Shown piece after piece: positions 1,346 to 18,806 of a DNA stretch of 64,000 nt. The first letter of the stretch is position 1; the number at the start of each line of letters is the position of its first letter. The position numbers and the translations under genes are program-made. Below the pieces are notes generated by a model. The model did no database searches, was not told where the DNA came from, and saw only the letters and a list, made by a program, of their open reading frames with translations. The stretch comes from a virus. The DNA lies in the IMG/VR virus record IMGVR_UViG_3300032080_000003, positions 1 through 64,000 of that record. One strand, 5' to 3'.

Positions 1346-1370
1346 TATTTATCTCAATATTAAAATTAAA

Positions 1371-2371: not shown

Positions 2372-2413
2372 TACTATCCCTCTAGGAAAAGGGTCTTTTC
2401 AGACCCTATGATA

Positions 2414-2944
2414 TTACAATTTCCAACGATTATCGATTTCACCACCAAGGGCTTCAACCACAGCAACAGCAGACTCATCCATCTTAGTGTTACCACCTTC
2501 AAGACGAATCAGGTTAACGCACTGAATATCCCATTGGCGGGTTTCACCAGTTTCAGAATCGGAATAAGCAGCATCAGGGACTGTCCCGATAAAAGCTTGT
2601 CGAGCATAATATAGGCTCTGTCCAGAATTATCTTTTACGGTGATACTAAAGACATATTCATCAGTAGCGTCATTCTCATCTGCAATTTGCATTTGTTGAA
2701 AGACACGATTACTGATTGAGGCTTGGTGCAGCGTGATGCTGATTGTGGAAGCTTTATTACGGCGTTTAACACGGAATGCTGATAGATCCGAGCCAACAAC
2801 AAGGCTGGCTGCTGGAACCATACGTGTTACGTTAATGAAAGTGCCTGATGCAAGACCGGAGACAATATGTGTCTGGTCAGCAACAGTAATGATTACAGCG
2901 ACTTCCTCAGGACTATACGTCCCGAGAATGGTATCAGATGCCAT
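2414..2944 (-). CDS. tail tube-like protein, paralog 1
   Basis: 176 aa, immediately downstream of the sheath-like gene. The ITVKDNSGQSLYYARQAFIGTVP core is paralogous to the next two ORFs. Confidence 0.6.
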   Translation of the reverse strand: MASDTILGTYSPEEVAVIITVADQTHIVSGLASGTFINVTRMVPAASLVVGSDLSAFRVKRRNKASTISITLHQASISNRVFQQMQIADENDATDEYVFSITVKDNSGQSLYYARQAFIGTVPDAAYSDSETGETRQWDIQCVNLIRLEGGNTKMDESAVAVVEALGGEIDNRWKL

Positions 2945-2962
2945 TTGTATTATTCCTTCTTA

Positions 2963-4246: not shown

Positions 4247-4262
4247 TTGAGAATTCCTCTCA

Positions 4263-4811
4263 TTAAGGGGTTATGATAAAATCTGGAGGGATTGTTGAAA
4301 CTTCACCTGTCTGTGTATCTTTAATTACAACAGCCTCCACTACATCCACAATCTGCTGTGTATTCACAGCGTATGTAAATACTACATCCATATTGTGATA
4401 TTCAACCCACTTCGTATCTCGTTTCTGTGGTGCTCGGCGGATGTTTGTTTTTGTTTTAAGGTTCAATCCGTACTTCTGTAACTCTTCTCTAAAAAGAACG
4501 TTGTTTAATCTTTGTGTGAACGTGTGAGACATGTCACCAGACAAATCCCCAATAAAGCTGAACTGAACATAAACATTATAGTTAGCTTGTATTGTAAGTT
4601 CGTTAAGCTCGTTGGTAAAAGTTGATGTATAACCTTTACCGATCTGTTCAATTTGCAAAACATTGATAACTACATAATCTTGGTCAGGCTCTGTTCCATT
4701 AGCATGAGACAAGATTACATTTCTTCTAGATACTGTAGTTGGGAAGTATTCTTCTAAAGCGACAATGGCAGCTTTCCTTAAACCGTAGGTTACATCTGTC
4801 TGTATACCCAT
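4263..4811 (-). CDS. neck / tail-terminator protein (by position)
   Basis: 182-aa ORF. Its start overlaps the stop of the upstream gene (ATGA). Lies between the head-completion genes and the sheath-like gene. Confidence 0.45.
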   Translation of the reverse strand: MGIQTDVTYGLRKAAIVALEEYFPTTVSRRNVILSHANGTEPDQDYVVINVLQIEQIGKGYTSTFTNELNELTIQANYNVYVQFSFIGDLSGDMSHTFTQRLNNVLFREELQKYGLNLKTKTNIRRAPQKRDTKWVEYHNMDVVFTYAVNTQQIVDVVEAVVIKDTQTGEVSTIPPDFIITP

Positions 4812-5314
4812 CAGTTACTTCCTTTCTTAACGACTTTGGCTGTTACATTATCTATAAGCTCGCCGGTGTTTCTAAGAGGGTCATTAAACCCTTTCATTTC
4901 AATAGTCAAAGCTGCGTTTGGAGGTGTATCCCAATCCCTCATGACTCTCTTAAGAAGGTTTTCAAAGAAATTAGAAGACTGAGTTAGAGCTGTCATAACA
5001 GACTTCCCCGAAATCACTCTTTTAATCATCTTTTCAAATTCAGCTTTAGTGGGTGAAGTTTTCATGGCTTGATATAACCCCACCCTCATAAAAGGTCTTG
5101 GTGGTGTCGTAGCACCCGGTATTAATGCATCTGCTCCATTTATATGGCCTAGCTCGTTCAACATGGCAATGTAGGCCATTGGTTGATTAGAATTATCAGG
5201 TCCATATCGGTGCTCAGGAAACCAACCTAACTGGATTTCAAGTCCATTCTTAGGAGACATATCCCGCTTCAGCTTATCCCAAACTTTAGTGTCTTTCTTT
5301 AATCTGAAAGTCAT
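4811..5314 (-). CDS. HK97 gp10-like head-tail joining protein
   Basis: 167 aa with an IPGATTPPRPFMRV segment typical of gp10-type tail-attachment proteins. Synteny is consistent. Confidence 0.55.
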   Translation of the reverse strand: MTFRLKKDTKVWDKLKRDMSPKNGLEIQLGWFPEHRYGPDNSNQPMAYIAMLNELGHINGADALIPGATTPPRPFMRVGLYQAMKTSPTKAEFEKMIKRVISGKSVMTALTQSSNFFENLLKRVMRDWDTPPNAALTIEMKGFNDPLRNTGELIDNVTAKVVKKGSN

Positions 5315-5324
5315 ATACTGCCCT

Positions 5325-5699
5325 TTAGTTTGGTGTTGGGCCTATTTTGGCTGCTTTGGCTTCCCGATGATCCTGCACGCCCATCTTAAAATTCTGAGTT
5401 TTCATCACTTCATACATATCACCGTCCCACTCAAAAATATCGGGGCCGTGCCCATTAGGTCCTTCTTTCTTTGAACGAATCAAATCTGAAGTGAAAACCC
5501 ATAGCCAACTACGTGTACGATCTGATTCAGGTAGCATGCTTACTTGATAATCTGAGAAAGGGTGTACGTTGGCTTGGATAACAACTTGCTCTTCAACACC
5601 CTTTACAACTTTACCTGTATCATCATCATAGACATCTTGAGAGCGACGAAGGATAGTGACTGGAACTTTTCTTACTAGAGAAAATTGGGCTATGCTCAT
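5325..5699 (-). CDS. head closure / head-tail adaptor protein (by position)
   Basis: 124-aa ORF abutting 5700..6161, in the neck module. Confidence 0.45.
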   Translation of the reverse strand: MSIAQFSLVRKVPVTILRRSQDVYDDDTGKVVKGVEEQVVIQANVHPFSDYQVSMLPESDRTRSWLWVFTSDLIRSKKEGPNGHGPDIFEWDGDMYEVMKTQNFKMGVQDHREAKAAKIGPTPN

Positions 5700-6161
5700 T
5701 TATCGCCTCACAACCCAATAGGGTAGATCAGGAATTCCATATGCAAACCTGTCCATCCAGTGACCTTCCTTACAACCTACTTCATCAATAGTTTGTACAA
5801 TCTTACCTGAGTAGGCTCCACAATCCGCTCTGTTATTCCAAACATCCACTGTATCAATACCAGCAGCATAGATATTAAGACTACCTAATCCTAGTGTTGG
5901 GTTCTGTGTAATGTTGGACAATAGTAGCTTGTACCAATCTAGAGCATTACTCCAGACTTCATAGTGACCTGCTGTTTCGCGGTACACTGATTTATTCTTG
6001 GCAAGGTCTGCGAGGATTGCGTAGATAGCAAAAATAGATGCTTGTCTTACACTACCACCAGCCATATCAAGAAAATATTGAATTTCTTCATCCGTGAAAG
6101 TGTATGGTTCGCTGTTATCACCAATAAAAAGGCGAACCGCTTGAATTGGTGTTAGGGCCAT
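5700..6161 (-). CDS. head-tail connector (gp6-like) protein
   Basis: 153 aa. First gene after the capsid terminator. The N-terminus MALTPIQAVRLFIGDNSEPYTFTDEEIQYFL is typical of connector/adaptor proteins. Confidence 0.5.
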   Translation of the reverse strand: MALTPIQAVRLFIGDNSEPYTFTDEEIQYFLDMAGGSVRQASIFAIYAILADLAKNKSVYRETAGHYEVWSNALDWYKLLLSNITQNPTLGLGSLNIYAAGIDTVDVWNNRADCGAYSGKIVQTIDEVGCKEGHWMDRFAYGIPDLPYWVVRR

Positions 6162-6171
6162 ATCTTTTCCT

Positions 6172-6200
6172 TTGAAAATAAGGGGAGTATTTCATCCCCT
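6172..6200 (-). terminator. hairpin plus U-run after the major capsid gene
   Basis: Minus strand reads AGGGGA-tgaaatac-TCCCCT followed by TATTTTC. Lies between the capsid stop (6215) and the next start (6161). Confidence 0.6.
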
Positions 6201-6214
6201 ATCTTGTTTACAAC

Positions 6215-7288
6215 TTAGGTCAACGACAGACGAACAATCGCTTGTGGCCTGAGGCAAGCGTTCAACTGGTTGGATTCAGACATAATCTCAATCTTATCCA
6301 TCTTATCGCCCATGTACTCTGCGTAGTAAACAGACTGACCAGCAGTGTTAACACTTGGAAAAGTGAGAGCAGGAGCGAAGTAGGTCTGGAACATATCAGT
6401 TACACCTAGCGGGAACGCGTAAGCATCGCCAGCAGGGATAAAGCGTTGAACAACACCATTTTGATCAGTGTAAGTACCACGGTATTCGATGAAAGTCAGA
6501 CCACCAAAGTTGAAGACTTGGTAGTTGGCAGGCAGACCCATACCAGCAGCCGACAGACGATTAACCAGTGGATCTTGATCGCGACGGAAATACTTATAAA
6601 CTTCAGTGATATAAGGGTTGGTGATCAGAGCTTGGAAGTATTCTGGCGAGCAGATTACAACAAAGTTGTCAGCAATCTGACCATTCAACAGACCATCTTG
6701 GATACCCGAGATAATGTCGTTGGTGTAGCTCAGAGGATCAACGTTGACGTTACCCAGATCAGTAACAATCTCAGTACGAGTAACACCGAACTCATTGTAG
6801 TAGTTTACGGTTGGACCATAAGAACGGGTCAGAGTACCGCTTGGAGCATACACACCACCAGTGGTGATGATTTGCATACGGGATACTTCTGACAGACGCT
6901 CGTAACGATTGCGAATCTCTTGCATCTTACGCAGACGTACAGCAGCAACAGTTTCCAGTTCCAGACCTTGGGCAAAGTTAGTCCAAGAGATGATACCTTG
7001 CAGATCACGAGGAGTGATCATGGTATCCAGTGGGAAGTGAGGAATTGGGAAGCTTACCAGAGCACGCTGAGTAGGCTTGATGGTGCTGTTACGCTCATCC
7101 CAGTTACGGTCAACTGGCAGACCATCAACTTCAGTCAGCAGGGAAACCGATACGTTTTCTTGAGTAACACCCTGTTCATTAAACAGGCCCATGCTGTTGA
7201 TCAGGCCCCAACGGTTAGGAATGGTGACGATCTGGTTGGTAAGCTCAGTTACCTGAGTAGTGTTATTTGGTTGAAAAGCAATTGCCAT
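6215..7288 (-). CDS. major capsid protein (lambda gpE-like arrangement)
   Basis: 357 aa. Follows the protease/scaffold and decoration-like genes and is itself followed by a terminator. Codon usage looks like that of a highly expressed gene. Confidence 0.8.
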   Translation of the reverse strand: MAIAFQPNNTTQVTELTNQIVTIPNRWGLINSMGLFNEQGVTQENVSVSLLTEVDGLPVDRNWDERNSTIKPTQRALVSFPIPHFPLDTMITPRDLQGIISWTNFAQGLELETVAAVRLRKMQEIRNRYERLSEVSRMQIITTGGVYAPSGTLTRSYGPTVNYYNEFGVTRTEIVTDLGNVNVDPLSYTNDIISGIQDGLLNGQIADNFVVICSPEYFQALITNPYITEVYKYFRRDQDPLVNRLSAAGMGLPANYQVFNFGGLTFIEYRGTYTDQNGVVQRFIPAGDAYAFPLGVTDMFQTYFAPALTFPSVNTAGQSVYYAEYMGDKMDKIEIMSESNQLNACLRPQAIVRLSLT

Positions 7289-7329
7289 TTATTTAGCTCC
7301 GATTGTTTAGTGTTGTGAGAAAGCTTGAC

Positions 7330-7749
7330 TTAGCAAGCAATCTCAACAAGAATACCTTGTGCTTCCAGCAGACCTTTGAGGGTCACAATCTGAGCAGCGT
7401 TGAATTGAGTGTTAACAGCTTTGATCAAGAAATCAGACAAAATAACTTCATCACGAACAAAGGCAACGGCTGGGGTGTTAGTGGTTGCAGCTACATCGAA
7501 GGTAGGCTTCCAGCTAAGACGATCACCAAACACAACTGCAAACTGAGTACCAGCAGCGGTGAGGTCAGCAACAACAGCACGGTGGAAAGTGGTATCAGCA
7601 GCAGCACGAGCTACAACAGTACCCATAGGAACAGCACCAGCAGCAGCGAAGTTCAGAGTGATAACTTTACGAGCGTAACCAACACTTGGGTCCAACTCGT
7701 GAACAACCAGATCACCAAGGGTGCGGTAGGTCAGATTAACAATAGCCAT
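7330..7749 (-). CDS. head decoration-like protein
   Basis: 139-aa Ala/Val/Thr-rich ORF between the protease/scaffold and capsid genes, which is the lambda gpD position. Confidence 0.5.
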   Translation of the reverse strand: MAIVNLTYRTLGDLVVHELDPSVGYARKVITLNFAAAGAVPMGTVVARAAADTTFHRAVVADLTAAGTQFAVVFGDRLSWKPTFDVAATTNTPAVAFVRDEVILSDFLIKAVNTQFNAAQIVTLKGLLEAQGILVEIAC

Positions 7750-7763
7750 TAGGAATAGTCCTC

Positions 7764-9122
7764 TTACTTAGTTTTATAGGTTTTTTGGATAAGTTTAGCG
7801 AGAGCGTCTTCCATATCGGGGTTAGTCTCGACCTCTACATCAGCACCCATTTCTTTAAAGAGTGGGTTTTCTACAAGAGCAGCATTTGCTTTAGTAACAG
7901 CAGCAACTACAGCTTCGTATTGAGCGTCTGAAACACCTTCAAGGGATGCAGACAGGGCAGCAGCTTGATCTTCACCAATCGAAGCTACCAGAGCAGCTTT
8001 ACGAGTGGCAGCTACAGCTTCTTTAGCTTCAAGTGCTGCTTTATCTTGAGCAGCTTTGAATTCAGCTACAGCGCTTTGAGCTTCAGCCAGTTTAGCTTGC
8101 AAATCTTGTACACCAGCCAGAGCAAGTTGAAGATCAGCAGCTTGTGCTTCATATTTAGTGCCGAGTTCGGAGAGTTCCGACTTAGCGAGTTCTAGTTCGT
8201 TCATATCGAAACTTTGTCCTTCTTTATTCATTTTAAATAGTTTGTCTTTGAGCATTGATTTCTCATCACCTTTATGACTTTGCGCTGTATCTGCTAAGTA
8301 TTCGTAAAAACCCTCAAGGGTCATTACTTTATCAGCTAGACCAAGCTTCAAAGCATCCCCGGATAGGAAAGTCTTTGCTTCTGTGGCTCTAACTGCTTCT
8401 ACAGACATGTTCCGGTTACTGGCAACAAACTCTGTAAAACTTTCGTATAGTGTGTCTACTTTTGTTTGGATGTCTGCAAGAAACTCTGGTTTGAAAGAGC
8501 CATCATTTGCAAATGGAACCTTATCAGCCCCTGCTGTAATGAAGGTACGCTCATAACCATCTTTCTCAAGAGCTTTGCTATCATTCATAAGTCGAACAAC
8601 TACGCCGATGCTACCCAATTCCGACTGACTATTTGTGATGATTTCATCAGAGATTGCAGTGAGTGCATAGGCTGCCGATGCGCTGAGTCCGTCGATATAC
8701 GACAGAATCTTTACACCCTTGGTATCTGCATACGAGCGGATATAATTGGCGGCATCAAATACACCGTAAGCCTCGCCACCGCCGCTGTCAGTCATGAATG
8801 CAATTGTCTTGGCACCACTATCTGCAAGGTATGTAAAGTCTTCCTTAAGTTGCTGATAGCTAGTACCACCACAATCAAAGCCCATCATAGTTACAGGCTT
8901 ATCTGTAAGTGGACCTTGGAGATTCATAACAGCAACACCAATATCACTATTGAAAGAGTAGCGGTCTGTCACCTCATGTCTTTCTGAATCACCCTCTTCA
9001 AGCTTGAAGTCTTTCGAACAACGAGCATCTAGGTAATCACAGATATTCTCAAAGGATACCAAAGACATCAATTGAGGTGTGTTATATACTTTGTCACGAA
9101 GCCTAATCAATTGATGAGACAT
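7764..9122 (-). CDS. prohead protease (S49/SppA-type) fused to an Ala-rich coiled-coil scaffold domain
   Basis: S49 motifs GGGEAYGVFDAANYI, GLSASAAYALTAISD and ELGSIGVV. The C-terminus is a heptad-like Ala/Glu/Lys/Gln region, as in lambda gpC/Nu3. Confidence 0.85.
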   Translation of the reverse strand: MSHQLIRLRDKVYNTPQLMSLVSFENICDYLDARCSKDFKLEEGDSERHEVTDRYSFNSDIGVAVMNLQGPLTDKPVTMMGFDCGGTSYQQLKEDFTYLADSGAKTIAFMTDSGGGEAYGVFDAANYIRSYADTKGVKILSYIDGLSASAAYALTAISDEIITNSQSELGSIGVVVRLMNDSKALEKDGYERTFITAGADKVPFANDGSFKPEFLADIQTKVDTLYESFTEFVASNRNMSVEAVRATEAKTFLSGDALKLGLADKVMTLEGFYEYLADTAQSHKGDEKSMLKDKLFKMNKEGQSFDMNELELAKSELSELGTKYEAQAADLQLALAGVQDLQAKLAEAQSAVAEFKAAQDKAALEAKEAVAATRKAALVASIGEDQAAALSASLEGVSDAQYEAVVAAVTKANAALVENPLFKEMGADVEVETNPDMEDALAKLIQKTYKTK

Positions 9123-10613
9123 TTAGTTTTCCTTGTTTGAGACAGATGAATCACCAGAAGATCCGTTATTGTTTCCTGTGCCTGATGGCAACCCTTCCTT
9201 TAGGCCACTTCCGCTAGCCGATTCAGAAGGTCCAAGAAGTTCATTAAGATCCTCTTGAGACATACTTTCATCAACACGGTCTGGAAGACCTAGCGCTTCA
9301 GCAATGTAGTTAATATTCTTAGGAGAAGGGACAACAAGACCTGTTGCTTTAACTCGTTGAAGAGCACTTGCATACTCACCAATATCCTGATTATCAATAT
9401 CACCGTAAGCAAACTTAGGCATATCCACTGGATTCCAACCATTCAACTGAGCTAGTTGTCTGACTAGATCGTTGTTAAGTTGATCTTGAATCTCCATGAG
9501 GGCAGCTTCAATACGAGTAGCAATGATAGATGTTTTACTATCTGCTAGGCTATAGGAGCCTGTTGCACCTTGACCTAGCTTAAGAACATCTGCGAAAAAG
9601 GACATGAGGATTTCATTGGAATACCGATCAATAATATCTCCAACGTTGAAGCTCTTTGTGCCAGTAACACCGGCAAGCTCAAAGTTGAACATCTTATTAC
9701 CGGCATCATCGAAGATAGAAGGAATAATTAAACCTTCTTGCTCTTCACGGTGCAAGTTACGCATTACTTTCTTAAGGTACTCGTATGTCTGTTTATCAGA
9801 ATCAGATGCACCATCAACCATATACTGTACAGGGATAGTAAGAACTGGAAGACCTCTCATATCCTTACTGACACCAATAGCTTCTGCTTCTTCTAACGCC
9901 TTCTTAAACTTCCAACTTTCCCAGCAGTAGTTAAGAGGAGAAACACCAATTGGTGAGTTCTTCCTAACATTAGTACGGAACAGCATAAACTTTTCACGGG
10001 GAATCAAAACACCGGGATAGATTTCCATCTGTTGGACATCACCAGTTTTGGTTGTTGTCCACTGACGTACACCCTGAATCTCTCGGTTGTACTCATCCAT
10101 CTCCCACTTGGCAATTGTTTCTTGGCCTCGTGGAACAATCTTTTTAATACCAATCAAACCGTCATCATAATATGAACCATTTGATTTCAGCCTTTTGCGA
10201 AATACCTTTTCCATGACAGAAAAACCGTAGGTATTGAAAGAACTGATTTCTTTAATAGTTTGATAAAGGCTTGTGTCTAGATCAGCGATACACTCTTCCA
10301 AGAATTTCTTCTTGCGTTTCATATCGTCTGTAGCGTCGTGTGGGATTTCAATTTTCCACTTTACTTTACTAATCATTGTTTCAACTAACTGAATAGCTGA
10401 ACTAACAGTAGCATCACGACGCATGTTATTGTATGTGTTAATGCACCAAGGCCATTGGAGTTCTTTTGCACAACCGTCTAGGATAGTGCCACCAATAATG
10501 TTCATCCCCGGCTGACCATTTTCCGAGAACTTAATTCTGGGAATAGTTGAGTCAGCACCTGTTGTCAGAGGAACACTTAGTGCATCCACCACGGGAGCCT
10601 TTGTCCTAGCCAT
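9123..10613 (-). CDS. portal protein
   Basis: 496 aa between the large terminase and the prohead protease, with a Gly/Ser-rich acidic C-terminal tail. Confidence 0.8.
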   Translation of the reverse strand: MARTKAPVVDALSVPLTTGADSTIPRIKFSENGQPGMNIIGGTILDGCAKELQWPWCINTYNNMRRDATVSSAIQLVETMISKVKWKIEIPHDATDDMKRKKKFLEECIADLDTSLYQTIKEISSFNTYGFSVMEKVFRKRLKSNGSYYDDGLIGIKKIVPRGQETIAKWEMDEYNREIQGVRQWTTTKTGDVQQMEIYPGVLIPREKFMLFRTNVRKNSPIGVSPLNYCWESWKFKKALEEAEAIGVSKDMRGLPVLTIPVQYMVDGASDSDKQTYEYLKKVMRNLHREEQEGLIIPSIFDDAGNKMFNFELAGVTGTKSFNVGDIIDRYSNEILMSFFADVLKLGQGATGSYSLADSKTSIIATRIEAALMEIQDQLNNDLVRQLAQLNGWNPVDMPKFAYGDIDNQDIGEYASALQRVKATGLVVPSPKNINYIAEALGLPDRVDESMSQEDLNELLGPSESASGSGLKEGLPSGTGNNNGSSGDSSVSNKEN

Positions 10614-10625
10614 GTAGGCTCCTTG

Positions 10626-12113
10626 TTAACGAATATTATTTAAAGGGTTTGACTTCTCATCAAAGCCAAAGGATTTCATACCACTCAGGAAATTAGGAAC
10701 AAAGACTTTTTGAGCAAGAATCATGAACGCATCACTACAACAGTCAACGAGGTCGTCATGTCCATTTTGGCCGCTTTTTCTTTCGCCTGTGAACGTCTCC
10801 AGCTCCTTGTAAAAGAAACCTAACTCACTGTATATCTTGTTCTCGTAGTCTGTTCCACAATTGCGTAAAATTCTTATCCCCCCATTCATACACATTGACG
10901 CAAATGGGCGGAAACGGTCAACTTTCCGTGTATTCGCCTTCATAGTGCGAACAAAGAAACCTTCTTCTGATATCTCTCTTGCTAACATAGTAGTTGCTGC
11001 TTTGGATGCAGGGTTTGGGTCCACAGGCAAAACTATATCTACGTTTGATCCGTCCCTTCTAGCATTTTCTACTACAAAGTTTTTCCAATCACCAAATCTG
11101 ATCCGAATTCTCTGTACTTCGTGAACGAAAAAAGTACCATCTTTCATTTTAGAAAGTTTAACACAACTGGTGTAATCAGGATCGTAGGAACTATCTGAAG
11201 ATTTGAGTGTACCCGCGAAGTCATATGCACGAACAGTTTTTACTATATCTGTCCAAGCAGGTTCTTGATTTTCTTCTTTGAACCACTCCCGCTTTATTAG
11301 ACCTTGACCTTCTGGCCTTGCTTCCCAATTTCCGTGGAGAAGAATTTCTTTCTCAATCCTAGGAAGACCTTGCAAAAAGGCAATATAACTTTTTTCAATA
11401 TGAGGGTTATCGTAAACCGAAGCAGAAATAAACCTAAAGGAAAGAGCTACGTTCTCTGGATATCTTTCTTCTAACTCTTCCTTTGTATCAGCCCAGTACA
11501 TCTCATTATCTAAGCGAACAAACCATCTAATTACACCCTGTTTTGCAGGATCTGGTCTTCCAAACAGCTCATGACCTTCTGGATAAAGATACCAATCAAC
11601 CCATTTCCTGACCCATGAGTCAGGATCGGGGTTCATCGTTGCACGCATGTTAGGCTTCATGTTAGCCTTAGTCCGCAAACGAGACAGGATATAGTTAAAC
11701 TGGGATTCTTCAAATTGACACAATTCCTCCATCACACAACTGGAAATTTGTGCACCTTGAAAGTTGTCCGTATCATCAACACGTTCAAAGTGAGAAAAGA
11801 AAATCTCGGCATCAGAGCTTGCAATAATTTTTAAATCTTTAATTCTTACTCGACAATCCGGGTCAAGTAGTTTATACAGTTGTTTTGCTTCATCCCAAAC
11901 AGCACCGGGCTTTAGCAACATGGGTGTTGTGCGGCGGAGTGTCAAGCCCCTATACAGGGGATCATGCATATACTTTGCGTGGTGCGCAAGCCCTGCCCAA
12001 GTCTTCCCTCCGCCTGCCTGACCCCCATAAAAGCATATATCCACCCAATCAGGGGTGGATAAAAACATGGCCTGAGGGCGACTGGCGGGTGCGATTACAT
12101 TTTCCAAGTACAC
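10626..12113 (-). CDS. terminase large subunit
   Basis: Walker A motif FYGGQAGGGKTWAG near the N-terminus. 495 aa, upstream of the portal gene. The first ~65 nt overlap the HNH ORF, so the true start may be the internal Met (MFLSTPDW). Confidence 0.9.
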   Translation of the reverse strand: MYLENVIAPASRPQAMFLSTPDWVDICFYGGQAGGGKTWAGLAHHAKYMHDPLYRGLTLRRTTPMLLKPGAVWDEAKQLYKLLDPDCRVRIKDLKIIASSDAEIFFSHFERVDDTDNFQGAQISSCVMEELCQFEESQFNYILSRLRTKANMKPNMRATMNPDPDSWVRKWVDWYLYPEGHELFGRPDPAKQGVIRWFVRLDNEMYWADTKEELEERYPENVALSFRFISASVYDNPHIEKSYIAFLQGLPRIEKEILLHGNWEARPEGQGLIKREWFKEENQEPAWTDIVKTVRAYDFAGTLKSSDSSYDPDYTSCVKLSKMKDGTFFVHEVQRIRIRFGDWKNFVVENARRDGSNVDIVLPVDPNPASKAATTMLAREISEEGFFVRTMKANTRKVDRFRPFASMCMNGGIRILRNCGTDYENKIYSELGFFYKELETFTGERKSGQNGHDDLVDCCSDAFMILAQKVFVPNFLSGMKSFGFDEKSNPLNNIR

Positions 12114-13224
12114 TAACCTCTATTTGCTCAATATTGTTTTTGACCTCTAACCAGCGATCTTTATTTTCTAAAGTGTTTGAAACAGAATTCCTAGCAACGC
12201 CATACAATGACGCCAAGAATTTCTGTTCTACAAAACCCGAACGCCACAATATTAAAGCTTCGACCACATCTACTAAGGAAAATATAGCCTTACTATTTAA
12301 TTTATGTTTCTTGATTCCTAGGTCTTCTATAGCTTTAGAAATCTTATCTCTGTGAGAATTCCTGTGTAACATCCAGTCTTCAATATATTCTTTTTCAATA
12401 TCGCGAATAGTCTTGCTAAGGTCTTTTTCAAGACTTTGTAAGTATTGATCAGAGTTATTATTTAGAGCTTTGACTAAATAACCAGAACAAAGAGACGGAT
12501 CAAAGCCTTCTTGGAAACGTTCGGACATAGTTCTAAAATAGCTGGCACTAAAATCTCTACCGGAGACCTTATTAACTTTTGTAGAAAAATCCTTCGGACC
12601 CGTCTTTTCTGATCGTTCCCAAAAGTCTTTAAATACATTGAAAGCCAACCAATCTTTCAGCTCACCTTTATGGCGAAAGATTGGTACATGAGAGCCTACG
12701 TTTATTAAAAAGTCTTGATAACAATCTTTTTTATAAATAAACTGTTCCATGTATTTTGTATTATTTTGCTTCCAATTAATAAGCTTCTTCTTTCTTTCAG
12801 TAATTCTTCTGGATGCCTTGATTTGCTCAAGAAGTTCCGGCGGATGGGTTACGCCAAACATCGGATTATTTTCTCCAGAGCATTGGGCACTTACCGCTTG
12901 AGAATACTCTTCTCTGAGTTTAGAATAAACTTTAGAGTTAATACCTACGTGACTATTGCCCGCAATATTATTTACCCATCTTGAACTCATGATATGGGCG
13001 GCGCGCATCAAACTTACATTGTCAGGATTTGCTTTCCACAACAACATGTGTGCTATAAAATGCTCTCTACCTGAAAACAATACAAAATTTTCAGCAGAAT
13101 CTGTTCCGCCAATACATACAGGAATAATATGGTGAGCTTCGGTATAAAAAGGTACTTTAGATTTGTTCAGACCACGAACTTTAGCTTTTTCTACAAGTGC
13201 ATTGTAAATCTTTTCGTAATTCAA
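12049..13224 (-). CDS. HNH homing endonuclease
   Basis: N-terminal motif YTEAHHIIPVCIGGTDSAENFVLFSGREHFIAHMLLW. TTG start with GGAG upstream. Inserted just upstream of the terminase gene. Confidence 0.85.
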   Translation of the reverse strand: MNYEKIYNALVEKAKVRGLNKSKVPFYTEAHHIIPVCIGGTDSAENFVLFSGREHFIAHMLLWKANPDNVSLMRAAHIMSSRWVNNIAGNSHVGINSKVYSKLREEYSQAVSAQCSGENNPMFGVTHPPELLEQIKASRRITERKKKLINWKQNNTKYMEQFIYKKDCYQDFLINVGSHVPIFRHKGELKDWLAFNVFKDFWERSEKTGPKDFSTKVNKVSGRDFSASYFRTMSERFQEGFDPSLCSGYLVKALNNNSDQYLQSLEKDLSKTIRDIEKEYIEDWMLHRNSHRDKISKAIEDLGIKKHKLNSKAIFSLVDVVEALILWRSGFVEQKFLASLYGVARNSVSNTLENKDRWLEVKNNIEQIEVSVLGKCNRTRQSPSGHVFIHP

Positions 13225-13316
13225 AACTCAATATCTCCAACTAGATTAAATAGGCGAGAGCTAGCTAACTGAGTTGGCAGTTAGCGGGGATGGCCATCCG
13301 TTCGCTCTCATTGTAT

Positions 13317-13709
13317 TTACTTATCTTCAGAACTTTCTTCTTCAGAATCACCATCTTCGTGCATACCACCTGCCTCGACAGCAGCCAAATACTGTCGAAT
13401 CATTTTATCCTTTGCACGGCCTTTAATACCACGAGAAGCCACAATAGGACGCATCTCTTCGATTGGCATTGCTTCCAATTCATCTTTCGAGTAAACCTGT
13501 TCACCCAAAGGAACCGGAATAGTCTGCAAACCGGGAGCTTGCTCTACAGTTTTATCTGTCTCAATCACCAGACTTGCTGTAATAGGAAAACCTTTGAGAC
13601 GAGGGTAAGTGTTCTCATGAAGTGTATAACCTTCTTTACCCATCTCCAGCACCTTATTAACGAAGTCTACAGGACTCCCGAAAGTAAGGTTAACAATTTG
13701 CTTAGCCAT
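13317..13709 (-). CDS. hypothetical protein with SAP/HeH-like C-terminal motif (possible small terminase or DNA-binding protein)
   Basis: Start moved to MAKQIVNL (ATG 13709, AAAGG upstream) because the track start 13745 sits at the predicted transcription start. The segment SKDELEAMPIEEMRPIVASRGIKGRAKDKMIRQYL resembles an HeH fold. Acidic tail. Confidence 0.55.
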   Translation of the reverse strand: MAKQIVNLTFGSPVDFVNKVLEMGKEGYTLHENTYPRLKGFPITASLVIETDKTVEQAPGLQTIPVPLGEQVYSKDELEAMPIEEMRPIVASRGIKGRAKDKMIRQYLAAVEAGGMHEDGDSEEESSEDK

Positions 13710-13752
13710 GTGTTCGTACCTTTTAAATTCGTTTAGTTGCTTCAAGAAAGAT

Positions 13753-13782
13753 AATGTATCACTATCAACATATGAAAGTCAA
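13753..13782 (-). promoter_or_regulatory. sigma70-type promoter TTGACT-18-TACATT
   Basis: Read on the minus strand, between the fibre terminator and 13317..13709. Confidence 0.5.
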
Positions 13783-13807
13783 TAGCTTAATAAAATAAAC
13801 ATGAAAT

Positions 13808-13842
13808 AATTTTATTAAAGAACATTCATCCTTAAATGTTCT
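13808..13842 (-). terminator. rho-independent terminator after the tail fibre gene
   Basis: Minus strand reads AGAACATT-taaggatg-AATGTTCT followed by TTAATAAAATT. Confidence 0.6.
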
Positions 13843-13858
13843 CTGTAAAACTACTTAA

Positions 13859-16093
13859 TTATGCGCCCACTCCTTCAACTCTGACCCTGACTGTTGTGTT
13901 AGGTAGAAGTGTAAGTGTGTTAGCACCAAGACCAATCAGCACCGTTGTCAATACACTATTACCGTAAGTGAGACCTGTTAAGGCTGTACTTGTACTAGTA
14001 TAGGCATTCAAACTAGCTTGCCTAATCCCTGCAACAGTGTTTGCTGTACTTACAGGCTGAACTTGTACATCAAGAATCTCTGTGAAGTCAGTACCTGTTG
14101 TAACTGTCCAGACAGAAGATGTGCTGTCGCTCACCACTGTGTAATATTTAACCTTGACCCGAGCTACCAAACTATTATCAACACGTCTTGTGATAGGAAG
14201 TGTTGCGGATGTAATCTTGGTATCAAGGGTCATCTGAAGGCTTGTAATATCACTAATTACGTGGATATGAGCACTTGGTGTAAAGCTTGTAGGTTTGTTT
14301 GTGAGATCATTCCATGACCCTGAAAACAATACAGGTTTATTCAGAATCTGACTTACACCACTTGTAGCTACCCAATCACTATTAACCTGTGCAGCGGGTA
14401 TAGTTGGCAAACCTGTCAAACTTGAATAGGCACCGCTTGTAGCAACGCTACTCAATCCGCCTACGTCTGCTGCACTAAGAACAATTGCACCAGTTCTACC
14501 CGCAACAGAGGTGACGGGATAGTTAACTGTTGGGATTACTGGCTTATTTGTAAGGTCTGCATAACTACCAGTAGACGCAACAGTTGCATAAATAGGCTTG
14601 TTAATCAAGTCAGCATATGAGCCACTGAACAGTGTTGGCTTACCTGTCAAGTCATTATAAGCACCTGAGAACAGACTAGGCAGTCCAGTAAGACTTGAGT
14701 AAGCAATAGCATCAAGAGAGTTACGCTTGCTGTCAAGAGTTGCTTGAAGATTGGCTATATCGCTGATTGAATGGCTGTGAGATGATGGTGGAAATGTCAG
14801 AGGTTTATTCTGAACATCAGCCCAACTGATATTAACAGACGGAACCTGAGCCAATGTAATGTAAGCCGAATCATTCTCAAACGAACTTACTTTGGTTGGA
14901 AACATGGGTTTATTTGTAAGGTCTGTATATGAGCCACTTACAGCAACAGAAGATAAGCCTGTAACTTGACTTACTGGAACATTAGCTGTGTTTGAAAGCT
15001 TACTATCTAAAGCTGTCTGCAACCCTGTTACATCACTAATTGGATGCTTATGATCTATAGTAATGTAACCACTATTGTTTTCTATCTGATTTGTAGATGT
15101 TGGGATAACAGGTTTATTAATCAGATCAGAATAACTTCCAGTTTTAGCTACAGATGCCAATCCTGAGTTTTCAGATTTAAGATAGTTTATGTCTGTATTT
15201 ACAGAGGATAATTCACCCTGTAAACCTTCTACTTCTGAAATGGTATGCGTATGTGCAGATGGAGCAAACGTTGCTGGAACATCTGTTAAATCTGCATAAC
15301 TACCTGTGAATCCTTCACCAATCTCACTGATTTGTTTTTGAATGTCATCAAGATCATTTTGATCAGCAACGCCAATGAAAACACCCTCTTGAATATAGCC
15401 TGAAAACTTAGGCATTCCGTTTGTGCCAGCAAGAAACATCTGGTCAGCTTGGATATCAAAAACAATGTCTGTACCAGCTTGGAAGATTACGGCTGTATCC
15501 AAGAAGTCCAATACGTTTTCACCAATACCAAAACTTGTCCCGTCCTTACCTGTAGTCCATGAGGATTTGGAGGGAAAGTACTTAACTGCAACACCAGACT
15601 TCTTGTCTGTGATACGCAGCCTTACGTTAGTCATATTCCCAGTTGCAGTAAAAATAAGGGAGTTTGTACGTGCAGTAAACTGGGTGGTGTAATTAAAGGT
15701 GAGGGGGTTTGTCGAGATAGTGATACTACCATTGGCCTGAGCATCAACCCTACGTTCAGCTTCTTTCAAATAGAAATAATAGGGCTTGGAAGCTGGTGCA
15801 TTTCTGGGAGTAGCATAATCCAAAAGCTGATATTTAATATTATCAACCATGTTCTCAAATGCAAGAAAGCCTGCTGATTCAGAGAGTCTAATAACATCTC
15901 CGAAATCAATACTGCCAGACTCTACAGCAAAACCTACTGGAGCGAGAAGGGAACCAGAAGACAGCACCCGCATACCACTGCCTTGAATTGTACCATCAGC
16001 AGCTTTGTAAGGGAGTTGATCGATAGGCCACATTGAAAGGTCATTACCTTCACCTTCAATGATTGTAGTTTTGTTTCTGTTTGGGATAATCAT
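13859..16093 (-). CDS. tail fibre protein
   Basis: 744 aa. About 9 copies of G(S/A)Y(A/S/T)DL(T/I)NKP and 4 copies of HxHx(I)SD(V/I)xxLQ (SAHTHTISEV, DHKHPISDV, SSHSHSISDI, SAHIHVISDI), as in T4-type fibre repeats with His boxes. Confidence 0.85.
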   Translation of the reverse strand: MIIPNRNKTTIIEGEGNDLSMWPIDQLPYKAADGTIQGSGMRVLSSGSLLAPVGFAVESGSIDFGDVIRLSESAGFLAFENMVDNIKYQLLDYATPRNAPASKPYYFYLKEAERRVDAQANGSITISTNPLTFNYTTQFTARTNSLIFTATGNMTNVRLRITDKKSGVAVKYFPSKSSWTTGKDGTSFGIGENVLDFLDTAVIFQAGTDIVFDIQADQMFLAGTNGMPKFSGYIQEGVFIGVADQNDLDDIQKQISEIGEGFTGSYADLTDVPATFAPSAHTHTISEVEGLQGELSSVNTDINYLKSENSGLASVAKTGSYSDLINKPVIPTSTNQIENNSGYITIDHKHPISDVTGLQTALDSKLSNTANVPVSQVTGLSSVAVSGSYTDLTNKPMFPTKVSSFENDSAYITLAQVPSVNISWADVQNKPLTFPPSSHSHSISDIANLQATLDSKRNSLDAIAYSSLTGLPSLFSGAYNDLTGKPTLFSGSYADLINKPIYATVASTGSYADLTNKPVIPTVNYPVTSVAGRTGAIVLSAADVGGLSSVATSGAYSSLTGLPTIPAAQVNSDWVATSGVSQILNKPVLFSGSWNDLTNKPTSFTPSAHIHVISDITSLQMTLDTKITSATLPITRRVDNSLVARVKVKYYTVVSDSTSSVWTVTTGTDFTEILDVQVQPVSTANTVAGIRQASLNAYTSTSTALTGLTYGNSVLTTVLIGLGANTLTLLPNTTVRVRVEGVGA

Positions 16094-16104
16094 GGTCTAT
16101 CTCC

Positions 16105-16392
16105 TTATTCGTAAGTTTCTACGAAGAGACGACCACCAGATGCACCTTTAGCCCATACTCTAGATGATGCTGGGACTTTTTCAATAACAGTCCAATTACC
16201 ATCTAGATTACCTTGCTTCAAAGGCCAACCATCATTGGATGTACCTACTGGCTGACTTGCACGTACCAGGAGAAATACGGTGGCAGCAGATTTATTATTG
16301 ACGATCAGAGATGTTCCCGGAGCAATACCTGTGAGAGTGTATAAATCTACCCAAGTATTGGTCGTAAGGAATACATCATTCAGTGAATCCAT
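16105..16392 (-). CDS. hypothetical protein (fibre-associated by position)
   Basis: 95-aa ORF immediately upstream of the fibre gene on the same strand. Confidence 0.6.
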   Translation of the reverse strand: MDSLNDVFLTTNTWVDLYTLTGIAPGTSLIVNNKSAATVFLLVRASQPVGTSNDGWPLKQGNLDGNWTVIEKVPASSRVWAKGASGGRLFVETYE

Positions 16393-16474
16393 AAAATAAA
16401 CACCTTTATTATTTTTGTATTAGGTGCTTGACAAATTTATAGTGCAGTCAAAGCAAGGACACTTTAGGTAAAAA

Positions 16475-17134
16475 TTACAAGCTCAATGTTTCTAAATTTT
16501 GAGCAGCTTCTAATTTTATCTTTTGAATCCTTGCTTGCAGGGAATTTTCTACCCTTACATCATAGCCTTTTTCTAACTTATATCTTTCAATAGATATTTG
16601 TAAACATTCAATCTTTGCTACTTGCCACGCTTTATGTGCATCTTCTGGTGTAGAGTAGACACCCAAATACTCAAGGATAGATTTACCTTCCTTAAAAATA
16701 TTAACCGTGCTTACGAAAGGTTTTGATTTTTCATTCACCATATTCTTATCAGTTAAATAAGAAACACCCAGAGGATATTTTCCTCTAGCTTTGTCTGCGC
16801 AAATAACTACCTTATTTAGCCACTGTGGGATAAACACACAAGTATCTGGACCATATATCTTGTTGCCCGGTACTAGAATATCTTTATCTAAATCATAACC
16901 TTGCCAATGTTGATTCTCCATCCAAGATTTGAAGTTGCTAGCCCTAAGCCACTCTGGGTGAACTTCTTTATCTGCATAAACTCCCCGATCTTTTTCTTTA
17001 TACGTATCTGAGCATCGAGTTAGCATATGCTTCCATCTAAAATAGAATGGGCAACGTTCTTGTTTTCCATTAATAACGGCTGCAACAGCATAATCTAAAT
17101 CATTAATGCCTAAACCAGAAACTAATCTTGCCAA
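16475..17134 (-). CDS. homing endonuclease-like protein, family 1 (AP2-type DNA-binding region)
   Basis: Paralog of 49077..49817. Shared motifs: GIGINDxDYxV, CPFYxxWKxMxxRC, NFKxWMExQxWQG and LDKDILxPGNKxYGPDTCVF. TTG start. Confidence 0.7.
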   Translation of the reverse strand: MARLVSGLGINDLDYAVAAVINGKQERCPFYFRWKHMLTRCSDTYKEKDRGVYADKEVHPEWLRASNFKSWMENQHWQGYDLDKDILVPGNKIYGPDTCVFIPQWLNKVVICADKARGKYPLGVSYLTDKNMVNEKSKPFVSTVNIFKEGKSILEYLGVYSTPEDAHKAWQVAKIECLQISIERYKLEKGYDVRVENSLQARIQKIKLEAAQNLETLSL

Positions 17135-17140
17135 TTTATC

Positions 17141-17236
17141 AGACCTCTATAGTCAAGCTTCTTAATGTCTGCAACAGGGACATTGTAACAAACCCTTCAT
17201 CAAGGAACTTGCTATAGAGGTCTTACTGTTACAATG
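17141..17236 (-). promoter_or_regulatory. interleaved inverted repeats (pseudoknot-type) sequestering the SD of 16475..17134
   Basis: 12-bp pair agacctctatag (17141-17152) / ctatagaggtct (17212-17223), and 10-bp pair cattgtaaca (17181-17190) / tgttacaatg (17227-17236). In the mRNA the element CUAUAGAGGUCU contains the GAGG located 9 nt before the TTG start. Confidence 0.6.
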
Positions 17237-17272
17237 TTTTAAGCCATTGCAGCGGCCTAATTCTTTCAGATA

Positions 17273-17677
17273 CTACTCTTCATTCTCATCCGGGTCAACA
17301 AAAACCAGACTAAGACGTGGTTTCAATTCAGCTGCAATCTCTTTCGGAGTCTGTTCAGCTTCTTCTTCGTCCCTCTTACCCTTTAGTCGAGCATTAAAAC
17401 TACCGAGCTCTTCTGCCGTGGCATTCTTGATAACACTTACAATAGAGTTGAGTACCCACTTGGCAGAGGCAACGCTGTCAGCATTAACATCGGTGCCCGC
17501 CAGACTTTTATCCACCAGCTGAAGCGCAATATCTTGACGCTCCAGAAGCTTATCAGCAAGTTCTCGGAGCTTGCTCTTCTTGATTCGAGTGGAAGAATTA
17601 CCCTTTTCATTCCTATTGCTTTTCTCTCCATCAAAACGTGTTGCACGTTGCGCTGGGGTATGCGGTTGTTTAGCCAT
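17273..17677 (-). CDS. hypothetical basic/acidic protein (small terminase candidate, weak)
   Basis: 134 aa with a Lys/Arg-rich N-terminus and an acidic C-terminus. First ORF after the long untranslated region. Confidence 0.55.
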   Translation of the reverse strand: MAKQPHTPAQRATRFDGEKSNRNEKGNSSTRIKKSKLRELADKLLERQDIALQLVDKSLAGTDVNADSVASAKWVLNSIVSVIKNATAEELGSFNARLKGKRDEEEAEQTPKEIAAELKPRLSLVFVDPDENEE

Positions 17678-17706
17678 AATATTTATTTCCTGTAGTTTAG
17701 GATTTT

Positions 17707-17892
17707 CTTAAGCAGACTCGCAGGCTATGCCTTGCAGTATTCATTTAGAAGGAGAATGCTTAAGAAAAGACCCTGTTGCAAGCCTATGACAATATAGGAG
17801 AGGATACGTCACAGGCTATCAAGGTCTGAAAGAGATGTCCGGGAGAGGAGACAGACACTCTTTAATGCTGAAGGAGGAGAGAAAACTTCAGC
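17707..17892. other. four consecutive stem-loops with GGA/GGAG-rich loops (CU-rich loops if read on the minus strand)
   Basis: Stems: cttaagca/tgcttaag (17707-17764); agcctatgac/gtcacaggct (17781-17817); aaagag-tgtc/gaca-ctcttt (17829-17863); gctgaag/cttcagc (17867-17892). There are 8 GGA triplets between 17751 and 17899. Confidence 0.55.
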
Positions 17893-17954
17893 AGGTGGAA
17901 ACATAAACTTTATGTAGAATTTGATTCTTTTCGTTTATGTCGGTGAAACCAATC

Positions 17955-18006
17955 TTAGCTCAATCATCACTATTAGCTGTACAGCTAAAATAGACAGACA
18001 AGCTAA
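17955..18006. repeat. symmetric half-site array TTAGCT-12-TTAGCTGTACAGCTAA-12-AGCTAA
   Basis: Perfect 16-bp palindrome at 17973-17988, flanked at equal 12-nt spacing by the same hexamer (17955-17960) and its complement (18001-18006). Confidence 0.6.
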
Positions 18007-18256
18007 TCTAAAATTCGCAGAACTACCACACTTGTACGGCTCTCGTAGTCCGCCCTTTAATGTGGCATTGTGGTTGAACACACTGGTCTGCTGTCAACGT
18101 ACTACGCCGCGTATGAACGTAGTAGCCTATCCCTGTTCCCATCCTACCAACAAACTTATGGAAATTGCTAGAATCGTGCCATATCACCAAGGATTTGTTG
18201 CTCTTTAAAACCCTTCGTATTCTTCATTCATATCTTTTCTCCATCAATATATCTAA

Positions 18257-18284
18257 TTATTACACAGTTAAGGGTTTCTGTCAA
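18257..18284 (-). promoter_or_regulatory. sigma70-type promoter TTGACA-16-TAATAA
   Basis: Minus-strand reading, just downstream of the stop of 18290..18475. It would give a ~560-nt leader before 17677. Confidence 0.45.
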
Positions 18285-18289
18285 GCACT

Positions 18290-18475
18290 TTATTCATATT
18301 TTGGTAAGATAGTTTTGTACATAGTTTCGTCTGGGCAAGTTATACTTTCAAACGCCCATTCATTTCTGAACACTTCCATACTATCTTCCAAATATTCTAC
18401 TTCAATTTCACAGACGCAATATCCGTCAAGCCTGCCGCACTGTGAACAAAAACTTACTTCGCCCATAGTGGACAA
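18290..18475 (-). CDS. small Cys-rich protein
   Basis: 61 aa with CSQCGRLDGYCVC, a zinc-ribbon-like pattern. Co-oriented with its neighbours. Confidence 0.55.
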   Translation of the reverse strand: MSTMGEVSFCSQCGRLDGYCVCEIEVEYLEDSMEVFRNEWAFESITCPDETMYKTILPKYE

Positions 18476-18542
18476 CCTCTTTTGTTTAATTTATGTACTT
18501 AGTTAATCACAGACAATAGTTATTTGTCAAGTGTTAGTGAAA

Positions 18543-18806
18543 TTAATTATCAAACCCCCAGCAACTATCCCAATCATTAGCCTCAAAACAAATATAAAAA
18601 TACTGATCTAAATAGCCAGCATACTTACCTTTGTAGAATAGGACGGGGTCGTACCCAAAAGTTAAACCATCAATTTTTACTTTATTGTAATCCCACCCAG
18701 CGTTTTTACACACCCAATTAACTTCCTTTGTGTATTTCCTGATGTCTGCCCAATCTCTTTCTATAGATTCATACGCAGGTGCTTGTTCATGAAATTTATA
18801 CCTCAT
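18543..18806 (-). CDS. hypothetical protein
   Basis: 87 aa. Its start overlaps the stop of the upstream polymerase-like gene (ATGA). Confidence 0.65.
   Translation of the reverse strand: MRYKFHEQAPAYESIERDWADIRKYTKEVNWVCKNAGWDYNKVKIDGLTFGYDPVLFYKGKYAGYLDQYFYICFEANDWDSCWGFDN

Follow-up and report, generated by a model that had tools for sequence, protein, structure and literature searches.

The untranslated region at positions 17678-18289 of the phage sequence analyzed here raises the question of what its series of hairpins represents, and on which strand. The window is a stretch of 64,000 nucleotides (positions 1 to 64,000 of IMG/VR record IMGVR_UViG_3300032080_000003) from a phage genome of ~40% G+C. 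The large terminase is 40-46% identical to those of Pseudomonas phages M1 (Ounavirinae), phiPMW and the PAK_P1-like phages, and searches with megablast and blastn revealed no nucleotide similarity to cultured phages. All genes from position 1 to 20161 are on the minus strand; among their products are the virion and packaging proteins, two HNH endonucleases and a tail fiber. Among them, the untranslated region separates two minus-strand genes, one encoding a 134-residue protein (17273-17677) and the other a 61-residue protein (18290-18475). Neither protein has a family match, and the smaller one is zinc-ribbon-like. The original prediction placed four hairpins in this region and offered three readings of them: a rightward transcript whose GGA-containing loops titrate CsrA/RsmA, a leftward leader with CUCC-rich loops resembling an anti-Shine-Dalgarno (anti-SD) sequence, or a terminase recognition (cos/pac) structure. 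We show here that the hairpins belong to a minus-strand phage RNA of a genuine and strongly conserved family that had not been catalogued before, and we establish its structure, loop motif, genomic context and distribution.

Folding of either strand of 17690-17910 recovered the four hairpins where they had been predicted, with free energies of -73.6 kcal/mol (z = -7.6) for the minus strand and -64.5 kcal/mol (z = -3.2) for the plus strand. The GGA richness noticed on the plus strand is equally real: nine GGA triplets lie in 17700-17900, which is the maximum per 201-nt window over the whole stretch (mean 2.4), reached by 0.08% of such windows. No credible coding sequence was found in 17678-18289, in agreement with the original reading of the region. 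None of the mechanical ORFs (31, 48, 55 and 95 aa) gave a significant match in PHROG, the sole listing being the 95-aa ORF at E = 0.28, and the stem variation in the RNA is compensatory, not codon-wise. The 31-aa ORF inside the RNA (17809-17904) was rejected, its ATG lying within a covarying stem and being missing from most homologues.

Comparative analysis defined an RNA of five helical domains preceded by a conserved tail, with the following components in the window:

17702..17949, minus strand: whole structured RNA of ~248 nt, comprising the 5′ tail, H0, H1-H3 and H4 (282 bits with the model CM R1 described below)
17942..17949, minus strand: conserved single-stranded 5′ end GUUUCACC, identical in 25 of the 35 full-length homologues
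17900..17941, minus strand: hairpin H0, which contains an internal loop and ends in a small apical stem (AGAAU-CAA-AUUCU), supported by compensatory changes
17866..17893, minus strand: hairpin H1, with a 12-nt loop UUUUCUCUCCUC at 17874-17885 (originally predicted at 17867-17892)
17829..17863, minus strand: hairpin H2, with a 10-nt loop UCUCCUCUCC at 17842-17851, supported by folding and covariation
17768..17827, minus strand: hairpin H3, with an outer 8-bp stem, an inner stem and the loop CCUCUCCU at 17796-17803 (originally 17781-17817)
17704..17767, minus strand: long hairpin H4 with a branched tip (originally 17707-17764)

The extents assigned to the hairpins from the single sequence thus held up in part: H2 is the same, and of H3 only the inner part had been seen. 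Hairpin H0, the outer stem of H3 and the conserved 5′ tail had been overlooked. H0 shows compensatory changes in nine of nine outer pairs and five of five apical pairs (36-sequence alignment A6). Every stem pair of H1 covaries (helices 3-4), as do all 12 pairs of H2 (helix 5), where the changes are compensatory. The two helices of H3 are paired in 100% (helix 6) and 90.5% (helix 7) of cases, and its loop CCUCUCCU is the most frequent H3 loop in the family. The base of H4 is an 11-bp stem (UUUCUUAAGC.../...GCUUAAGAAA), with a further UUCUCCUU in the internal loop; helix 8 of this hairpin is 98.8% paired, with compensatory changes in 10 of 14 pairs. Since no U-tract follows H4, it is not an intrinsic terminator.

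To trace the family, the 134-aa protein was used as the anchor of a search against IMG/VR and the JGI metagenomes, which yielded 30 loci. Upstream of the 134-aa gene, most of them carry the same hairpin series, built from entirely different stems and with the same CU-rich loops. MAFFT alignment of seven such arrays misaligned the variable stems, and RNAalifold recovered H4 only. Because MAFFT was unable to align the arrays, a covariance model (CM R1) was built from three close sequences, namely the window and two close relatives, on the minimum free energy structure of the window. CM R1 detects the RNA in 20 protein-anchored loci and confirmed 24 of the 55 loci fetched by a DNA pattern combining the loop and H4. 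The total is at least 36 distinct RNA sequences from uncultured related phages of ~89 kb (contigs of ~84-92 kb), with CM scores of 50-282 bits and RNA lengths of ~215-255 nt. Near-full-length contigs bearing the RNA are 78-92 kb long, and in every case the RNA is on the strand of its flanking genes. The distance to the 134-aa-type gene can be larger than in the window, reaching 1-3 kb in three loci (L002, L010 and L034).

Searches outside this group were negative. The exact H1 string has no match in IMG/VR, and the H0 loop string gave just two extra matches there, both in coding DNA and attributable to chance. The RNA was not found in the first 50 kb of the 89-kb genome of the cultured Pseudomonas phage M1, in 50 kb of the cultured phage phiPMW around its tRNA region and structural genes, or in the tRNA region of T4. 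At least 80 loci in bacterial and archaeal genomes fit the motif pattern, none of them a CM match among the matches listed.

Single-sequence folding of all 36 RNAs gave the same five domains with the CU loops left unpaired. The shared layout starts with the GUUUCACC tail, followed by H0, three hairpins with open CU loops and the long branched H4. The CU loops are 7-19 nt long and fully open, and the hairpins that carry them number three in most of the 36 homologues (range about 2 to 4). Covariation in the related phages is pervasive, with 67 of 74 pairs changed on both sides in the CM-based alignment of the 36 sequences. Standard pairs account for 91.8% of the 2290 pair cells, a percentage somewhat inflated by fitting of the family alignment to the model structure. 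Covariation scores 0.55, compared to 0.16 after shuffling, with none of 500 shuffles reaching the observed values, and sliding the 3′ partners by 1-3 columns lowers pairing to 34-45%. Despite the model-fitted alignment, the conclusion on structure is safe, since it is also carried by the independent single-sequence folds and by wholesale replacement of the stems. Such replacement is seen most directly in locus L001, whose flanks are 94-95% identical to the window and in whose RNA BLAST can align nothing but part of H0 with the window copy. One RNA “allele” has here been exchanged for another between phages that are nearly identical, and structure and loops have been retained.

The transcribed strand is settled by several independent measures. 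Read as the minus strand, the paired columns of the family alignment contain 112 G·U/U·G cells versus 26 A·C/C·A cells. Because the 112 become mismatches when read from the plus strand, this asymmetry indicates a minus-strand RNA. The sense strand folded better in 16 of 16 instances, with z-scores of -4.6 to -12 compared to -1.2 to -5.8 for the antisense strand. Strong sigma-70-like promoters, defined by at least 10 of 12 matches, lie within 1.5 kb upstream in the sense direction in 25 of 33 loci, versus 7 of 33 in the antisense direction. No plus-strand promoter or terminator bracketing the hairpins was found in the window. Moreover, the tRNA genes of the related loci are all on the strand of the RNA, and in six of these loci (L002, L007, L029, L030, L069 and L081) the gap between the tRNA 3′ end and the RNA 5′ end is 0-1 nt.

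The surroundings of the RNA on this strand contain further conserved elements, listed here in the direction of transcription:

18256..18284, minus strand: near-consensus promoter of the extended -10 sigma-70 type, which would drive the RNA island leftwards
18131..18196, minus strand: third conserved module (CCUUGGUGAUAUGGCACGA...), ~85% identical to stretches of two related loci (L085 and L070)
18014..18127, minus strand: second conserved RNA-like module, located downstream of the promoter and upstream of the main RNA, recognized by sequence identity
17273..17677, minus strand: first downstream gene, 134 aa, with a basic N-terminus and an acidic C-terminus; its ATG lies 24 nt past the RNA

The promoter had been predicted at 18257-18284 and was found running from 18284 to 18256 (TTGACA-17-AATAAT with an upstream TG, 11 of 12 matches). 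The second module is 77-88% identical to stretches of four loci (L068, L056, L019 and L089), and its predicted hairpins are kept by paired changes; the third shows 86% identity over 37 nt in locus L047. Folding of the segment 17950-18250, the remainder of the untranslated region, is no more stable than that of shuffled sequences (z = -0.14), although parts of it are conserved. On the downstream side, the next ORF after the RNA is an apparent homologue of the 134-aa gene in 27 of 33 loci as judged by size (129-141 aa), and 11 homologues were confirmed by alignment. No tRNA genes were found in the window. In locus L039, a tRNA follows the RNA at a distance of 9 nt. Given the agreement in strand and the tRNA adjacency in related loci, the RNA is one unit of a co-transcribed tRNA/small-RNA island. 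Two side observations concern other loci. Upstream of the RNA in locus L009 lies a match to the hammerhead core. The equivalent site of a more distant relative (L011) carries three hairpins with UCUCCUCC/UUCCUCCU loops, preceded by a consensus promoter and ending in a U-tail, a layout of the classical free-standing sRNA type with a weak CM match of 13.5 bits.

The loops are the constant part of the RNA, while the stems are freely replaced across the family. Among 98 CU-rich loops, 82 contain UCUCCU and 68 contain CUCUCCU, compared to only 17 with the canonical CCUCC. The consensus is C(C)UCUCCU, and the complement of CUCUCCU is AGGAGAG. The heptamer includes CUCCU, which is the core of the 16S rRNA anti-SD sequence and occurs within the 16S 3′ tail CCUCCUUA. 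GGAG is absent from all 36 RNAs, which fits such a motif because the loops would have to stay free, and the RNAs are C-rich and G-poor (24% versus 15%). On the transcribed strand of the window, CUCUCCU is found only inside the RNA. AGGAGAG occurs at 12 sites in the sense mRNA of the window, eight of them at a distance from a start codon that resembles that of a ribosome-binding site (RBS), and these eight precede small non-structural genes.

SDs of the GGAG type precede 56 of 107 non-structural versus 3 of 20 structural genes in the window (p = 0.003), and the genes downstream of the RNA have weak SDs of the AAGGA/AGGU type. Predicted loop-RBS duplexes average -7.1 kcal/mol for non-structural and -4.9 kcal/mol for structural genes. 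This split in SD class is not specific evidence for an action of the RNA, since the same trend is seen in the control phage M1, which lacks the RNA in the part searched (GGAG SDs in 13 of 34 structural versus 89 of 143 other genes). The ratio of GGAGA to GGAGG is 111:32 in RNA-positive loci compared to 25:36 in M1 at the same G+C, and 33:19 in the RNA-negative phiPMW. At the level of sequence, complementarity of the loops to the RBSs of the phage's own non-structural genes is real; co-evolution of the RBSs with the RNA is hypothetical.

Comparison with Rfam 15 gave no match at the gathering score in the whole window, including the models for GOLLD, ROOL, 6S, tmRNA and riboswitches, and only tRNAs and group I introns were matched in 17 related loci. 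The closest known architecture is that of the cuckoo RNAs (αr14/ar14, RF02344), which include RSs0680/CcsR1-4 of Rhodobacter and SmelC397/NfeR1 of Sinorhizobium. These RNAs have 2-4 adjacent hairpins with variable stems, each presenting a C-rich anti-SD-like loop CCUCCUCCC (PMC4615179). Similarly, the phage RNA has about 2-4 adjacent variable-stem hairpins that share a C-rich loop motif, and ar14 is the only Rfam model that weakly matches the right strand (14.1 bits versus a gathering score of 58.8, E = 6.1). However, the phage loop is CUCUCCU rather than CCUCCUCCC, and the phage RNA adds H0, the branched H4 and the conserved 5′ tail and lacks a terminator. It resides in the tRNA island of a virulent-type phage of ~40% G+C, not in an alphaproteobacterial replicon, whereas cuckoo RNAs are free-standing sRNA genes made up of the hairpin modules alone. 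By loop motif, score, extra domains, terminator and context, the phage RNA therefore falls outside the cuckoo/αr14 family. Cuckoo RNAs are Hfq-associated and repress translation by RBS pairing, a function for which the phage RNA shows the complementarity to RBSs.

By position, the RNA resembles the small stable RNAs species 1 and 2 of phage T4 (rnaC and rnaD), which are cut out of a tRNA precursor. These RNAs are encoded where the T4 tRNA cluster ends, directly after a tRNA gene and in its orientation; the corresponding contiguity in the present family was found in the six related loci described above. Nevertheless, there is no similarity in sequence or structure and no CM match, and T4 species 1 and 2 have tRNA-like acceptor/T-arm ends and no CU loops. 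GOLLD and ROOL are structured phage-associated noncoding RNAs of unknown function, typically located beside tRNA genes, compared to which the phage RNA is far smaller. The sRNA2 of PAK_P3 has an 11-nt stretch in common with the TψC loops of host tRNAs, and neither PAK_P3 sRNA1 nor sRNA2 is described as having CU-rich loops (PMC4933390). A 2025 review of phage sRNAs contains nothing comparable (PMC12197685), and a literature search on the loop motif found nothing relevant. The T4 protein RegB inactivates early mRNAs through their GGAG SDs, its strong sites being GGAGRAYARAA (PMC1702504, PMC3014915). Such sites resemble the AGGAGA(A/G) sites common in the non-structural genes of the present phage. 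As RegB is a protein nuclease and the phage element an RNA, any likeness would be one of functional analogy.

From these features we infer the processing, mode of base-pairing, targets and biological role of the RNA as follows. The preferred reading, to which we give somewhat less than an even chance, is that the RNA is excised from a tRNA-type precursor and pairs through multiple seeds with RBSs of the GGAG(A) type. The host RNA polymerase would transcribe the tRNA/small-RNA island from the consensus sigma-70 promoter, with the RNA as its last member. Processing of the tRNA type would then free the RNA from the precursor, as suggested by the position of the GUUUCACC 5′ end exactly after the tRNA 3′ CCA end in several relatives. 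CUCUCCU in the open loops of the three central hairpins would provide multiple seeds for RBSs of the AGGAG(AG) type, with the caveat for such an anti-SD function that the conserved heptamer is CUCUCCU and not the canonical CCUCC. Paired RBSs would be masked, and the duplex might be exposed to RNase III. Translation would consequently be shifted away from mRNAs with GGAG SDs, a class that comprises most of the non-structural genes of the phage and, presumably, mRNAs of the host, in favor of the virion genes, which mostly have AAGGA-type sites. Precedents for such an action are the cuckoo RNAs with their repeated anti-SD loops and the attack of T4 RegB on GGAG SDs, and the hairpins of L011, with their own promoter and U-tail, also speak for this reading. 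The farther-reaching proposal, that a stable tRNA-precursor-derived RNA with 3-4 anti-SD mimics reprograms translation initiation in a virulent phage, is more doubtful. Such an RNA would soak up, or mark for cleavage, the GGAG(A) RBSs of host and early phage mRNAs, and the virion operon would escape by avoiding RBSs of this type.

Other explanations of the hairpins differ in strand, in molecule and in partner. The original suggestion of a rightward transcript, whose AGGAGAG loops would titrate host CsrA, draws on the A(N)GGA core contained in this sequence and on the plus-strand GGA triplets (nine in 200 nt), the densest stretch of the window. It is nevertheless very unlikely, as the conserved structure is that of a minus-strand RNA: this is the strand that the wobble counts support, and every homologue tested folds less well on the plus strand. 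The hairpins are not bracketed by a plus-strand promoter and terminator, and the antisense promoters present in 7 of 33 loci are distant. A comparison of 17500-18600 with Rfam gave no match to any model of the Csr/Rsm family (CsrB/RsmX/Y/Z type), even at E ≤ 10. In addition, all of the flanking genes and tRNAs are encoded by the minus strand. The phage RNA does resemble CsrB, RsmY and RsmZ in that several of its hairpin loops share a single short motif, but on the transcribed strand the motif is pyrimidine rather than GGA, and the loops number only three to four. A DNA element, either the terminase recognition (cos/pac) structure originally considered or a replication origin made of inverted repeats, would suit a non-coding stretch that precedes the large terminase gene by ~5.6 kb. 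We give this explanation practically no credence, since selection on a duplex or cruciform cannot produce strand-asymmetric wobble pairs; the asymmetry and the compensatory stem changes point to selection on RNA and not on DNA. Moreover, stems have been replaced wholesale with the single-stranded loop sequences kept, and tRNA genes adjoin the RNA.

With a minus-strand RNA, two further explanations differ from multi-seed pairing in the role of the loops. The element might be a cis-acting 5′ leader of the virion-gene operon, not a free RNA, serving in stabilization of late mRNA or in control of read-through by Rho-dependent attenuation or processive antitermination. Such a plain leader is conceivable because no intrinsic terminator separates the RNA from the next gene in 33 of 33 loci and the next start codon is so near, with an ORF, whatever its identity, beginning 20-32 nt downstream in about 19 of the 33. 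The RNA also always heads the structural block, and its C-rich, G-poor composition would be in keeping with this role. We nevertheless consider a leader improbable. About 10 loci have insertions of 100-290 nt, consisting of tRNA-like or other RNA modules, that separate the RNA from the gene, and the spacing to the promoter ranges from 0.14 to >1 kb. The 5′ end is set by a tRNA 3′ end in six loci, and the tRNA of L039 follows closely on the other side; RNA ends that adjoin tRNA genes fit excision from a tRNA-type precursor. Stabilization, for its part, needs no invariant loop heptamer repeated three times, and such a motif implies a sequence-specific partner. Thus, the predicted leftward transcript with CUCC-rich, anti-SD-like loops stands with regard to strand and loop chemistry but not as a mere leader, the element being a discrete family of five helical domains embedded in a tRNA/small-RNA island.

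The sequence-specific partner might also be a protein, recruited or titrated by three identical pyrimidine loops; candidates are ribosomal protein S1 or the 30S subunit (as a standby site or enhancer for virion genes with weak SDs), Rho (given the YC-rich loops) or a phage protein. One motif repeated in several loops on variable stems is the hallmark of protein-titrating RNAs such as CsrB and CrcZ. The conserved motif differs from the anti-SD core and exceeds it in length, the C-rich and G-poor RNA without GGAG is of the kind bound by Rho, and the downstream genes have the weak AAGGA/AGGU-type SDs that an enhancer would assist. However, no candidate gene for an RNA-binding protein co-varies with the RNA, the 134-aa and 61-aa neighbors having no family match, and we know of no bacterial RNA-binding protein with a CUCUCCU hairpin-loop consensus. 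A protein-binding platform or sponge is accordingly judged unlikely, and pairing of the loops with RBSs is kept as the preferred reading.

To our knowledge, virulent phages have yielded very few regulatory RNAs so far, and small RNAs encoded in phage tRNA clusters, such as T4 species 1/2 and PAK_P3 sRNA1/2, have been without an assigned function for decades. The support for the present family is unusually clean: it has 36 members, and nearly all of its stems show compensatory changes. Its three invariant anti-SD-like loops provide a functional handle that makes the mechanism directly testable. If the loops act on RBSs, a phage would have arrived at the “cuckoo” design by convergence, and the shut-off of host or early genes would have an RNA route; if the anti-SD-mimic reading is true, the RNA would be an RNA-only counterpart of T4 RegB/RegA. 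If the loops do not act on RBSs, the hairpins would still constitute a new and well-supported phage RNA family for Rfam.

The DNA between the sigma-70-type promoter of the window (18256-18284, minus strand) and the ~248-nt structured RNA (17702-17949, minus strand; hairpins H0-H4) carries two further conserved modules, which are as follows.

Window 18014-18127, minus strand: second conserved module, hairpin-rich, between the promoter and the RNA
Window 18131-18196, minus strand: third conserved module, CCUUGGUGAUAUGGCACGAUUCUAGC...

The former is matched at 77-88% identity by stretches in four related loci (L068, L056, L019 and L089), against which its predicted stems show paired changes, and it is probably one more small RNA of the island, the tRNA/small-RNA cluster that holds the structured RNA. 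For the latter, identity is ~85% to stretches in L085 and L070; in L047 it is 86% across 37 nt. A candidate mini-ORF of eight codons (MNEEYEGF; window 18205-18231, minus strand), with a GGAGA Shine-Dalgarno, lies ~25 nt downstream of the -10 element of the promoter.

Related islands hold additional elements. In L009, an element that resembles a tRNA and has a long variable arm (4891-4970) begins 10 nt 3' of the RNA; it scored 34 bits with the tRNA-Sec model and received no call from ARAGORN. The cultured Pseudomonas phage M1 (L090) has a 107-nt non-coding stretch upstream of its tRNA genes (39196-39302), with 84% identity to part of the RNA island of L004 (4583-4685). This stretch is a candidate for a further conserved small RNA that is present in cultured phages, too. 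In addition, a hammerhead ribozyme core, CUGAUGAG...CGAAAC...GUU, lies ~125 nt upstream of the RNA in L009 (4469-4515); its match to the HH9 model (21 bits, E = 0.02, under the gathering score) suggests that self-cleaving ribozymes aid the processing of the RNA island. Cores resembling that of L009 were spotted by eye in L020 and L031.

Downstream of the homologues of the 134-aa gene, the first gene after the RNA in the window (17273-17677, minus strand), L004 and L007 carry group I introns scoring 76-88 bits (L004 6833-7098 and 8291-8535, L007 9729-9992). The window itself has no introns at the gathering score, and contains two HNH endonuclease genes.

Window 16475-17134: HNH endonuclease gene
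Window 12049-13224: HNH endonuclease gene

Shine-Dalgarno usage differs along the window: the GGAG type is rare in structural genes (3/20, mostly AAGGA; 1-17677) and frequent in non-structural genes (56/107, mostly AGGAGA; 20200-64000). Phage M1 follows the same direction but more weakly, with the GGAG type in 13 of 34 structural versus 89 of 143 non-structural genes.

In a more distant phage, L011, the equivalent position (4574-4790) holds three hairpins with UCUCCUCC/UUCCUCCU loops downstream of a consensus promoter, and a U-tract comes after the third hairpin. This region scored just 13.5 bits against the covariance model of the RNA, built from the window and two close relatives, and may be a free-standing analogue. 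The DNA flanking the RNA is 94-95% identical between the window and L001 and the 134-aa protein 99% identical; the BLAST alignment of their RNA copies (window 17702-17949, L001 4534-4765) reaches no further than part of H0. The RNA and its neighbouring modules seem to be exchanged as cassettes among near-identical phages.
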